Origin: an uncultured Poribacteria bacterium
Lineage (GTDB): Bacteria > Poribacteria > WGA-4E > WGA-3G
Direction of reading: 5' to 3'
DNA length: 64,000 bases
NCBI GenBank assembly: GCA_951813565.1
Contig: OX638351.1
Span: 1,056,001-1,120,000, forward strand
A program made the position numbers and the translations under genes. The stretch's first letter is position 1. Each line of letters opens with the position of its first letter. This document shows positions 53,493 through 55,920 of the stretch, in pieces. The notes beneath the pieces were generated by a model. That model saw only the letters and a list, made by a program, of their open reading frames with translations. It made no database searches and had not been told where the DNA came from.

Positions 53493-54239
53493 GTGCGGCT
53501 TGAAAAATATATTTCTTCTTCAGGTATTGCCTCTCGGCGCGCAGTAAAGCGAGCCATTCGTGAGGGGCACGTCACTGTGAATGGAGCAAAAATTCTCATC
53601 CCCGGACATCCGATTGATGTGGAAAAAGACATTATTGAGTTTGAAGGGAAACAGGTTCAACCACTAACAGAACATATCTATCTGATATTGAATAAGCCTG
53701 CAGGTTATTTAACGACTCGTCGTGATGAACGTGGTCGTCCTACCGTGATGGATCTTTTAACAGACCTACCGAAATCTATTTATCCAGTGGGACGTTTGGA
53801 TTTAGAGACTGAAGGTCTTTTGTTGTTCACGAATGATGGAAAATTCGCTAATCGGTTGATGCATCCAAGTCATGAGATTGAAAAGACCTATCTTGCATGG
53901 GTAAATGGCATTCCAAGTAAACGTGCACTTGAACGCTTACGTAACGGTATTGCCATCCCCGGTGGGAAAACTGCCCCAGCGAAGATCAAACAACTAAATG
54001 TGAAAACTGTCCCTCCGTCATCTGCTAATAGCAAAACACATAAAAATGAGGTAGTTGCAAAATTTAGGGTGATAATCCACGAAGGGAAAAAACGGCAGGT
54101 ACGTCTGATGTTTAAAGCGGTGGGACATCGCGTTATCCGCTTGAAGCGGACACGTATAGGGGCGTTAGGGTTAGGCAATCTCCCGCAGGGGCAATATCGA
54201 TTTCTGACCCCTACGGAAGTTGCTAAATTGCAAGCTTAG
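53493..54239 (+). CDS. rRNA pseudouridine synthase (RsuA/RluB family)
   Basis: S4 domain MRLEKYI..SG.ASRR, LNKPAGY, VGRLD..TEGLLL, EGKKRQVR. Confidence 0.93.
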   Translation: MRLEKYISSSGIASRRAVKRAIREGHVTVNGAKILIPGHPIDVEKDIIEFEGKQVQPLTEHIYLILNKPAGYLTTRRDERGRPTVMDLLTDLPKSIYPVGRLDLETEGLLLFTNDGKFANRLMHPSHEIEKTYLAWVNGIPSKRALERLRNGIAIPGGKTAPAKIKQLNVKTVPPSSANSKTHKNEVVAKFRVIIHEGKKRQVRLMFKAVGHRVIRLKRTRIGALGLGNLPQGQYRFLTPTEVAKLQA

Positions 54240-55264
54240 GTGTCACTTTTATTTTCTGCTTCCGCAGCCAATTCCTTGACGCTTTTCAACCGCGTTTCAG
54301 CAGTCTGTTTCACCCGATCATCTGATGTATGACTTATCAATTTCTCAAGTACTTCAATTGATTTGTCGTACTGTTTTGCAATTGAATAGGTTACACCGAG
54401 ATAAAGTTGAGCAAGTTCATAAACCCCACTTTTTGGATAGGTGTCAATGACTGTTTTGAAATGCATCAGCGCCATTTTGGTATTTTCTGCTGCGACATCT
54501 TCAGCTTTATCTTGAATTTGATTGCCATAAGCGACTCCGAGTTGTATGTGTAAAGCAGGAAGAAGTCCCGAAGTGTTTTTAGTATCATTTTCAATGACCT
54601 TTTTGCTGAACGGGAGCGCTTTTTCTAATTGTCTCTGTCCCAAATAGGCTAAAGCGATTCCATTGTTCAACTTGACATCATCAGGTATTTTTTTGCTAAT
54701 CAAAAGCGCCTTTTCCAATTGTTCCCGTTTTATATAAAGAATAGCGATTTCACTGTTTAGGGTGGCATCATCAGGCGTTTCCTTAAGTTTTGCCAATTTT
54801 ACCTGGAATTCCATCTCTTGTTTTAGAGCTTCTTCCATCACAGGTGCAAATTTTTCAGGTGGAGCGTATCCGACTTTTTTAGTGATGACACCACCATCCG
54901 GGCCGATGAACAAAACTGTCGGATAGCCTGTAATTTCATACTTCTTGCGCGTTTCCTCGTTTATAGGCAATTCCGTGTCTTGTGGGTTTACCTTGACGGT
55001 AATGAACTTCTCAGAAAGGGCAATGACGTTTGCGTCAGTGAATGTTTCGGCATCCAGCCGATCACACCAACCTCACGAGTCTGTATAGAAGTCCATCATA
55101 ATCGGTTTGCCGGTATCAACGGCTTGTTTCGTAGCTTCCTCAATAGACATTCCCCATTGGACTTTTTCGCCTTCAGCAAAAACAGGAATCAATACTGTCA
55201 TTAGCAGAAGGACGGTGAGTCCTGCTACATAGGGAGAGTAGCGGTAAAAAACAGAATTATACAT
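54236..55264 (-). CDS. Exported thioredoxin-fold + TPR selenoprotein (UxxC), 342 aa by UGA read-through
   Basis: ORFs 55073-55264 and 54236-54970 share a frame and are separated only by the TGA at 55075-55073: GKPIMMDFYTDS-U-GWC-DRLDAETF...FITVKVN...GYPTVLF. Confidence 0.85.
55040..55072 (-). promoter_or_regulatory. Putative bacterial SECIS element
   Basis: Directly after UGA: GGUUGGUGUGA-UCGGC-UGGAU-GCCGA-AACAUUC; the apical loop begins 16 nt after UGA and has G at its second position. Confidence 0.7.
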
Positions 55265-55444
55265 TAATTCTCTCCTTTAGGTAAACGATAAATTAGGTGT
55301 TTCCTATATTGTCATGTTGAGCAGATAACCCGCACAACCGTTTATCCTTTTAGTGATTGTAAAATAATACCACATTCCACGAAGTATGTCCAGTTAAAAC
55401 AGATTCTTGAAGGTGTGTAACCAATTCTGCATAGTTTAGTTCAT

Positions 55445-55920
55445 GTCGGGCTTCGCTCTACCCATAGGCGTCAATTTAGCGATGAGTTTCTTGTGGGAGG
55501 GAAACCTTGAAAGCCCGATTGAACGAGATTTAAGCAGAAAATCCAAATCAACGCTGAATGCGCCAAATCAAGAAATCAACGGTATGAATCATGGCGAATG
55601 CCAAAAGCGCATTCGTCTTTAGTCATTCACCGGGTATGAATGCCTGTTGGCATTCCCCGTATGGCATGCTGCCAAATCAACGCTGAATGCGCGTGTAGGC
55701 ATTCATCCAAATCAACGCAGCATGCGCGTATGGCATGCTGCGGGGTTGAAAACCCCTCCCACAAGAGGATATATCCTTAAGTTTACACCCGTCAAATGCC
55801 AAAAGCGCATTTGACGTTGATTTGGCTGAATGCCCGCTAAATGCCACAGGCGCATTTGGCGTTGATTCAGGCGTTCATAGCGTTGATTTATGGGTTTCGC
55901 TGCGCTCTACCCGACCTACA
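55445..55920. repeat. Composite intergenic repeat packed with hairpin cassettes
   Basis: Blocks shared with 48931-48992, 49042-49119 and (inverted) 27211-27289; multiple CGTTGATTTG / CAAATCAACG units. Confidence 0.8.

Follow-up and report, generated by a model that had tools for sequence, protein, structure and literature searches.

The window analysed here is a stretch of 64,000 nucleotides from an uncultured Poribacteria bacterium. The gene of interest occupies positions 54236..55264 on the minus strand, which also carries the gene features given below, and runs from an ATG at 55264 to a TAA at 54236 with a single interruption, a TGA at 55075-55073. Translated with TGA as selenocysteine (Sec, U), the frame gives a protein of 342 residues in which the lone TGA is residue 64. 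The active-site context is GKPIMMDFYTDS-U-GWC...GYPT (FYTDS-U-GWC around the read-through position), so that Sec64 takes the first position of a UxxC motif, as judged from the sequence and from the comparison of homologues, and the resolving residue would be Cys67 (55066-55064), the sole Cys of the protein. A ribosome-binding site, AAGGAG (55272..55277), lies 5' of the ATG. A σ70-like promoter match further upstream (TGGACA-17-TG-TATTAT, 55364..55392) is a match to the consensus only, and such sites occur in the region in the number expected by chance. Calling open reading frames with translation table 11 recovers just the downstream piece of 244 residues, starting at a TTG at 54970, which has neither the signal peptide nor the active site. 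This 244-residue form is the one in the protein collection (P0002), and the claim of the initial annotation that the gene is split at an in-frame TGA and missed by standard annotation is thus borne out. The relatives named in databases are 'hypothetical' or TPR proteins of Candidatus Poribacteria, and a word search returned mostly truncated Poribacteria fragments. The truncated database gene very likely encodes a full-length redox enzyme, predicted to be exported, with selenocysteine in its active site.

The N-terminus has the features of a Sec/SPase I signal peptide (predicted residues 1-30, 55175..55264): a basic n-region, a hydrophobic core and a V-F-A end. By hydropathy, 69 of the 76 Sec sites found in Poribacteria have such a hydrophobic stretch at the N-terminus, closed by an A-x-A-like site; 68 is the better count, since one of them (L110) belongs by sequence and by its place in the tree to a clade without signal peptides. 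The relatives show variable acidic insertions or linkers directly after the Ala of the predicted cleavage site. The hydrophobic stretch could instead be a membrane anchor. The signal-less clade consists of eight paralogues from relatives in the genus (L109, L068, L069, L071 and L110-L113) that have lost the signal, have a longer C-terminus and keep both Sec and the SECIS element; in one genome (G078) a signal-less paralogue stands in tandem before the exported copy.

A thioredoxin-like domain of the DsbD-gamma/DsbH/SoxW type follows (residues ~34-145, 54830..55165), with the cis-Pro loop at G-Y-P115. PF13098 is the best Pfam match (50.2 bits; cut-off 27), and TPR_19 and TPR_6 also score over their cut-offs. 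Searched with Foldseek, the thioredoxin part matches DsbD-gamma (TMt 0.76) and DsbH (0.70), and it matches the Bacteroides PDB entry 2kuc with an E value of 1.7e-19. The AlphaFold2 model of the mature chain, made from 55 sequences (mean pLDDT 95.9, pTM 0.88), has a thioredoxin fold with a helical solenoid after it. Two helical TPR-like repeats of ~30 residues (residues ~162-221, 54602..54781) are seen in the repeat comparison and in the model, and relatives in the genus have two to four copies. The TPR pair at the C-terminus (54311..54493), matched by TPR_19, resembles CpoB/YbgF and BamD at scores far below the cut-offs of those families (TIGR02795: E 8e-5, 23.2 bits against a cut-off of 90.1; CpoB, PDB entry 6g5s: E 1.3e-7). 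Among the 55 aligned members, 54 have weak YbgF matches and 18 have BamD matches, again far below cut-off. No NCBIfam model names the protein; the scores against the respective cut-offs are 34/190 for DsbH, 43.6/330 for DsbD, 74.7/805 for TsoB, 25.6/300 for Trx7/PDZ and 17.6/275 for VPGUxxT. The proposed order of signal peptide, thioredoxin UxxC domain and TPRs is therefore supported by the predicted signal peptide, PF13098 and the TPR families.

The TGA is almost certainly decoded as Sec64 by SelB and tRNA-Sec acting on the hairpin that follows it, a reading made from sequence comparison. Profile searches of the source genome found selA (607 bits), selB (344) and selD (372), all over curated cut-offs, and selD itself carries a TGA; the tRNA-Sec (78 bits) adjoins selB and is the sole UCA tRNA of the genome, which completes the selA-selD set. 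Across the phylum, selB is present in 60 of 61 sampled genomes. Within the order, 55 genomes were sampled and 54 gave a TGA-containing match, only G002, an assembly in 170 contigs, having none; the six genomes sampled outside the order gave no such match. The fetched loci, with one edge hit left out, represent 80 distinct sites, of which 76 have TGA, two TGT and two AGC; the xxC after the Sec position is kept in all 76 TGA sites. We examined 151 database homologues and could assign the Sec site in 137 of them: 134 have CxxC, two WxxC and one SxxC, bearing in mind that gene-called database proteins cannot show Sec. The TGA is thus conserved among these sponge-associated bacteria and aligns with Cys. 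Those with Ser or Trp are P0039, P0012 and P0046, and the two Trp residues may be gene-caller readings of TGA. Two database proteins, P0036 and P0039, are nested in the Poribacteria Sec clade and carry CxxC or SxxC, an apparent loss of Sec.

It is extremely improbable that the TGA truly ends translation, in a split gene or a pseudogene, that it arose by sequencing error, or that another code makes it a Trp or Gly codon. The truncated 244-residue form carried by databases and the two proteins with Trp at the site speak for such a reading. Against it, TGA closes 440 of the 2265 long open reading frames of the source genome and is therefore a normal stop there, and the only UCA tRNA is tRNA-Sec; an alternative genetic code is rejected on these grounds. 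Moreover, the TGA, the open frame on either side and the hairpin are retained down to 25-35% protein identity. Contigs from two sequencing runs, both of which may be the source of this DNA, span the stretch with no differences and hence no TGC or TGT; an assembly error is ruled out by the recurrence of the TGA in 76 distinct sites from Poribacteria genomes. A DNA run from another study (X9) shows 65 differences over 744 nt and does not bear on the TGA position. None of the three observations named beforehand as fatal to the selenoprotein (missing Sec machinery, reads with TGC or TGT, a TGA and hairpin that are not conserved) was made. A contig from an RNA library (X11) covers 55079-55343 at a depth of 3.4 and ends 4 nt before the UGA; it may derive from DNA and is no evidence on expression either way.

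The SECIS upper stem, UCGGC/GCCGA (55047..55061), closes the apical loop UGGAU (55056-55052). There are 16 nt between the UGA and the loop, which therefore begins at the 17th nucleotide. The hairpin UCGGC-UGGAU-GCCGA is the minimum free energy (MFE) fold at -13.9 kcal/mol. The bSECIS consensus, as given in the part of PMC13188914 consulted, has a loop of 3-9 nt, a stem of 4-16 bp, G in the first two loop positions, a spacing of 16-37 nt and an MFE of -7.5 or below; checked by hand, the element here has a 5-nt loop, 5 bp, G in second position, a spacing of 16 nt and -13.9 kcal/mol. Stability is weak as proof: the z-score against shuffled sequences is -2.48 for 40 nt (2/200 shuffles) and lies between -0.24 and -1.60 for 50-100 nt. 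Of the 14340 TGA junctions of the source genome, 7639 fit a loose bSECIS pattern when no energy filter is applied. It is conservation that carries the case. Behind 550 of 210072 TGAs (0.26%) stands this exact geometry of three pairs with a GG loop, and among the Poribacteria sites the 3-bp core is kept in 75 of 76 and the GG loop in all 76. Codon choice within the hairpin is nearly fixed, with CGG for the Arg at +5 after the UGA (71/71) and CTG for the Leu at +6 (76/76), while the commonest Asp and Ala codons reach 0.95 and 0.93; for the flanking Thr, Gly, Leu and Ser codons, the commonest codon accounts for just 0.34-0.55 of rows.

Changes in the stem point the same way. Among 72 distinct rows, the G14-C24 pair is replaced by A-U in four and by G-U in one and is broken in one, and the four A-U rows fall in two separate clades of a quick tree (SH-aLRT support only, long Cys branches), which served to place this compensatory change and the signal-less clade and not the origin of Sec. 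In a distant clade the hairpin is remade as GGCUC-UGGAA-GAGUC, with three pairs and the encoded residues changed and the spacing and UGGA kept. All 39 distinct TGA contexts have the stem with a GG loop, as against 5 of the 27 Cys contexts; the patterns used to collect either group were biased towards one and the same peptide. The SelD gene of the source genome has a hairpin of the same geometry, with a spacing of 16 nt, 4 bp and the loop CGGGC. Scored over the whole structure, covariation (0.089) stays below the slid control at +1 (0.106), and we therefore rely on the changes at individual pairs and on the contrast between Sec and Cys contexts. By this comparison the SECIS core is well supported and under selection. 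The SECIS-like hairpin first described at this locus thus stands as to its core, which is real, conserved and 16 nt from the UGA, but not as to its extension: the lower stem GGUGU/ACAUU (extended hairpin 55041..55068) forms here, whereas its register is not conserved, with the outer pair holding in 39 of 72 distinct rows, and it is rejected as a conserved part of the SECIS. RNAalifold retains the 3-bp core alone downstream of the UGA, and the C13-G25 pair fails in 10 of 72 rows. RNAalifold also gives another, weak helix around the UGA (approximately 55089-55071 in the window; columns 17-35 of alignment A1), with pairs that are mostly invariant or changed on one side.

A metagenome scan with the alignment as query kept 80 loci, 54 with TGA and 26 with Cys. 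Of the TGA loci, 44 are just 25-46% identical, and a loose lipobox pattern fits 38 of the 54. Six TGA loci were scanned for domains: all had PF13098-type matches, five had thioredoxin plus TPR and one thioredoxin only; as the tail of L204 has no TPR match at E 0.001, the count of thioredoxin plus TPR is strictly four of six by Pfam. One distant locus aligns to the Poribacteria profile over 288 columns with a probability of 99.9. Given these distant TGA loci, the Sec form is not confined to Poribacteria. Within the set, 29 metagenome loci among L152-L211 (the ALEE group, for example L179) form a distant clade of lipoproteins with Sec, thioredoxin and TPR and a GGCUC/GAGUC stem, and L190, L195, L198 and L199 are short Sec lipoproteins with thioredoxin only.

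The protein fits a catalogued family, the 'thiol:disulfide interchange protein' selenoproteins, with which it has PF13098, UxxC and a single Sec in common (representative WP_011366075.1; Table 1 in the parts consulted of PMC13188914 and PMC9312934); members of this family are predictions and functionally uncharacterised. Compared by eye in the portion of the deep-Sep supplement used (PMC12013277), the representative has the same thioredoxin motifs and a C-terminal TPR-like segment (I-x-x-Y-P-K-S...A...L-G/N); it differs in being about 190 residues long and in lacking a signal peptide, and the Poribacteria protein adds the 30-residue repeats. An entry of the same family name from candidate division LCP-89, in the same portion, has by eye a signal peptide and UxxC, and its long helical tail resembles that of the L183/L193/L204 group. 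Since published members combine thioredoxin with a TPR-like tail, one of them with a signal peptide, the architecture lies, on this by-eye comparison, already within the catalogued family; the novelty is modest, and that implied by the initial annotation was too high. Poribacteria members of the family were not found in the texts searched, and none of the papers found on Poribacteria and selenoproteins or selenocysteine concerned this protein, judged by titles and the beginnings of abstracts. The word 'Tetratricopeptide' has no occurrence in the main text of the two selenoprotein reviews (PMC13188914 and PMC9312934), and 'Poribacter' is absent from the searched part of the BSepDB supplement, a genome list (PMC13326102); BSepDB may already list these genes. 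The closest structures and sequences to the catalytic domain, DsbD gamma, Chlamydia DsbH and Bacteroides 2kuc, are envelope reductants that differ in being Cys-based and in having no TPR. Uncharacterised proteins, for example from Armatimonadota (HIE52550.1) and Cloacimonadota (MBL7108517.1), have the same architecture of signal peptide, thioredoxin and TPR but with CxxC, often WCGWC, in place of Sec, and it is in Cys contexts such as these that the stem with the GG loop is rare.

The gene follows what we take to be mnmE in 27 of 34 long loci (the other seven are three non-Sec homologues and four paralogues) and stands downstream of a presumed yidC-jag-mnmE cluster; in 21 loci and in the window it is faced by a gene that we take to encode a pseudouridine synthase. 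A cluster of REP-like repeats, short and palindromic, with CGTTGATTT / ATGC..GCAT units in direct and inverted orientation, lies between the mnmE gene and the Sec gene at 55534-55900. At the locus the neighbours are housekeeping genes, with no dsbD or other redox gene beside the Sec gene, and so no partner is indicated. The source genome has one full DsbD (C1:4988058-4989962). DsbB, VKOR and DsbA/DsbG-like PF13462 gave no match in this one genome (95% complete; three Pfam models), and the envelope is possibly without the usual disulfide-forming pathway.

A coding-potential scan of the source genome added ~17 Sec candidates, of which many have signal peptides and some are peroxiredoxin-like. 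Two neighbouring paralogues (G000:C1:2853089-2854666 and 2855966-2857999, L132) have an in-frame TGA in x-C-U-G-S-G and SECIS-like hairpins, and no Pfam, NCBIfam or PDB match; the motif is reminiscent of eukaryotic selenoprotein N, and no literature linking SELENON, bacteria and Poribacteria was found. One candidate (G000:C1:3348581-3349408, L126) combines a signal peptide, a weak F5/F8 type C domain, W-C-U-G and a GGA hairpin; it has a strong coding signal on either side of the TGA and is absent from the part used of the selenoprotein catalogue consulted for comparison. A small DUF5069 protein (G000:C1:1853758-1854060, L130) has Y-P-U-P and a UGGA-loop hairpin. The remaining candidates (G000:C1 positions 4296954+4297404, 5150303, 5151710, 4467097, 4948687, 1806488, 4462206, 4462776, 360117, 660557 and 4611836) comprise an exported double peroxiredoxin (C1:4296711-4297733) whose gene has two TGAs, three redoxin-like proteins (the two shown in full have lipoprotein-like signals), a thioredoxin fusion, a DUF3179 protein, three HMA domains with G-M-T-U-x-x-C, FdhA and SelD. 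One of the HMA domains is presumably fused to a cytochrome c-like/WD40-like protein.

Our main reading, to which we give a probability of roughly 0.6, is that the protein is a Sec-containing disulfide reductase of the cell envelope, exported, fed by DsbD and directed to its clients by its TPRs. Sec64 would be inserted by SelB and tRNA-Sec at the hairpin, a step about which there can be little doubt; signal peptidase I would then, with high probability, remove residues 1-30 and the chain would fold in the periplasm. There, the Sec64 selenolate would probably attack a client disulfide or sulfenic acid, Cys67 would resolve the adduct and the Se-S bond would be re-reduced by the alpha domain of the single DsbD, while the TPR solenoid would confer specificity by binding clients or an envelope complex. 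Possible clients in the same genome are its exported peroxiredoxin-like Sec proteins and other envelope proteins with Cys or Sec. We infer the reductive direction and the DsbD partner because the closest folds are DsbD-gamma and DsbH, a full DsbD is present and DsbB, VKOR and PF13462 were not found. Such a reductase would be analogous to the ScsB-TlpA-PprX envelope pathway of DsbD-family, thioredoxin-like and peroxiredoxin proteins (in the part used of PMC3322552) and to DsbH, termed a reducing oxidoreductase (in the part used of PMC5193440).

The protein is unlikely to be a periplasmic chaperedoxin. In that case the TPRs would act chiefly as a holdase towards envelope proteins that are unfolded or oxidised, and the Sec site would reduce or shield the cysteines of these proteins in the manner of cytoplasmic CnoX. 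The location of the gene downstream of the presumed yidC-jag-mnmE cluster would suit such a role, as would the domain order, an N-terminal thioredoxin fold with C-terminal TPRs as in CnoX/YbbN (PDB entries 3qou and 3qdn), and E. coli YbbN (3qou) is the top Foldseek match (E 4.6e-7). This match, at a TMq of 0.26 over the whole chain, an r.m.s.d. of 19 Å and 12% identity, therefore reflects shared domain types only. CnoX combines both functions (PMC6282202, parts consulted), but it is cytoplasmic, has WCGPC or SxxC and works with GroEL/DnaK, themselves cytoplasmic (PMC6282202 and PMC7464077, parts consulted), whereas the Poribacteria protein has a predicted signal peptide, S-U-G-W-C, a thioredoxin domain of the DsbD-gamma/DsbH type and a C-terminal TPR resembling the CpoB/BamD adaptors. 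CnoX membership fails on motif and predicted location, and the 'redox chaperone' role initially proposed is unsupported. Also unlikely, and somewhat less probable in our view, is a dedicated adaptor-reductase or isomerase that is bound through its TPRs to a single machine of the envelope, such as Tol-Pal, Bam, YidC or a complex for cytochrome maturation, and whose UxxC acts on the substrates of that machine and not on clients in general: the weak YbgF and BamD matches among the aligned members and the single conserved copy at a fixed position within the order are what it would lead one to expect, but those matches, far under cut-off, are generic for TPRs, and the freely varying repeat number is a poor fit to a rigid dedicated interface. 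It is also doubtful that the reductase extends to a DsbD-fed periplasmic selenium chaperedoxin whose TPR arm holds unfolded envelope proteins, stands at the centre of a network of selenoproteins, most of them exported (peroxiredoxin-like Sec proteins, metal-binding and DUF3179 proteins and others), in an envelope without DsbA/DsbB oxidation, aids a sponge symbiont against host oxidants and defines an unnamed, exported Sec-thioredoxin-TPR subfamily widespread well beyond Poribacteria.

The exported Sec reductase that we favour would not be a new kind of system. A gene truncated in databases throughout a bacterial order is now corrected, with its catalytic domain and export signal restored, and the sites provide a clean set of natural SECIS covariation in which the Cys forms serve as controls. 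Through this protein an uncharacterised, predicted selenoprotein family becomes accessible to study, as does the question of why bacteria would use Sec in an oxidising envelope.
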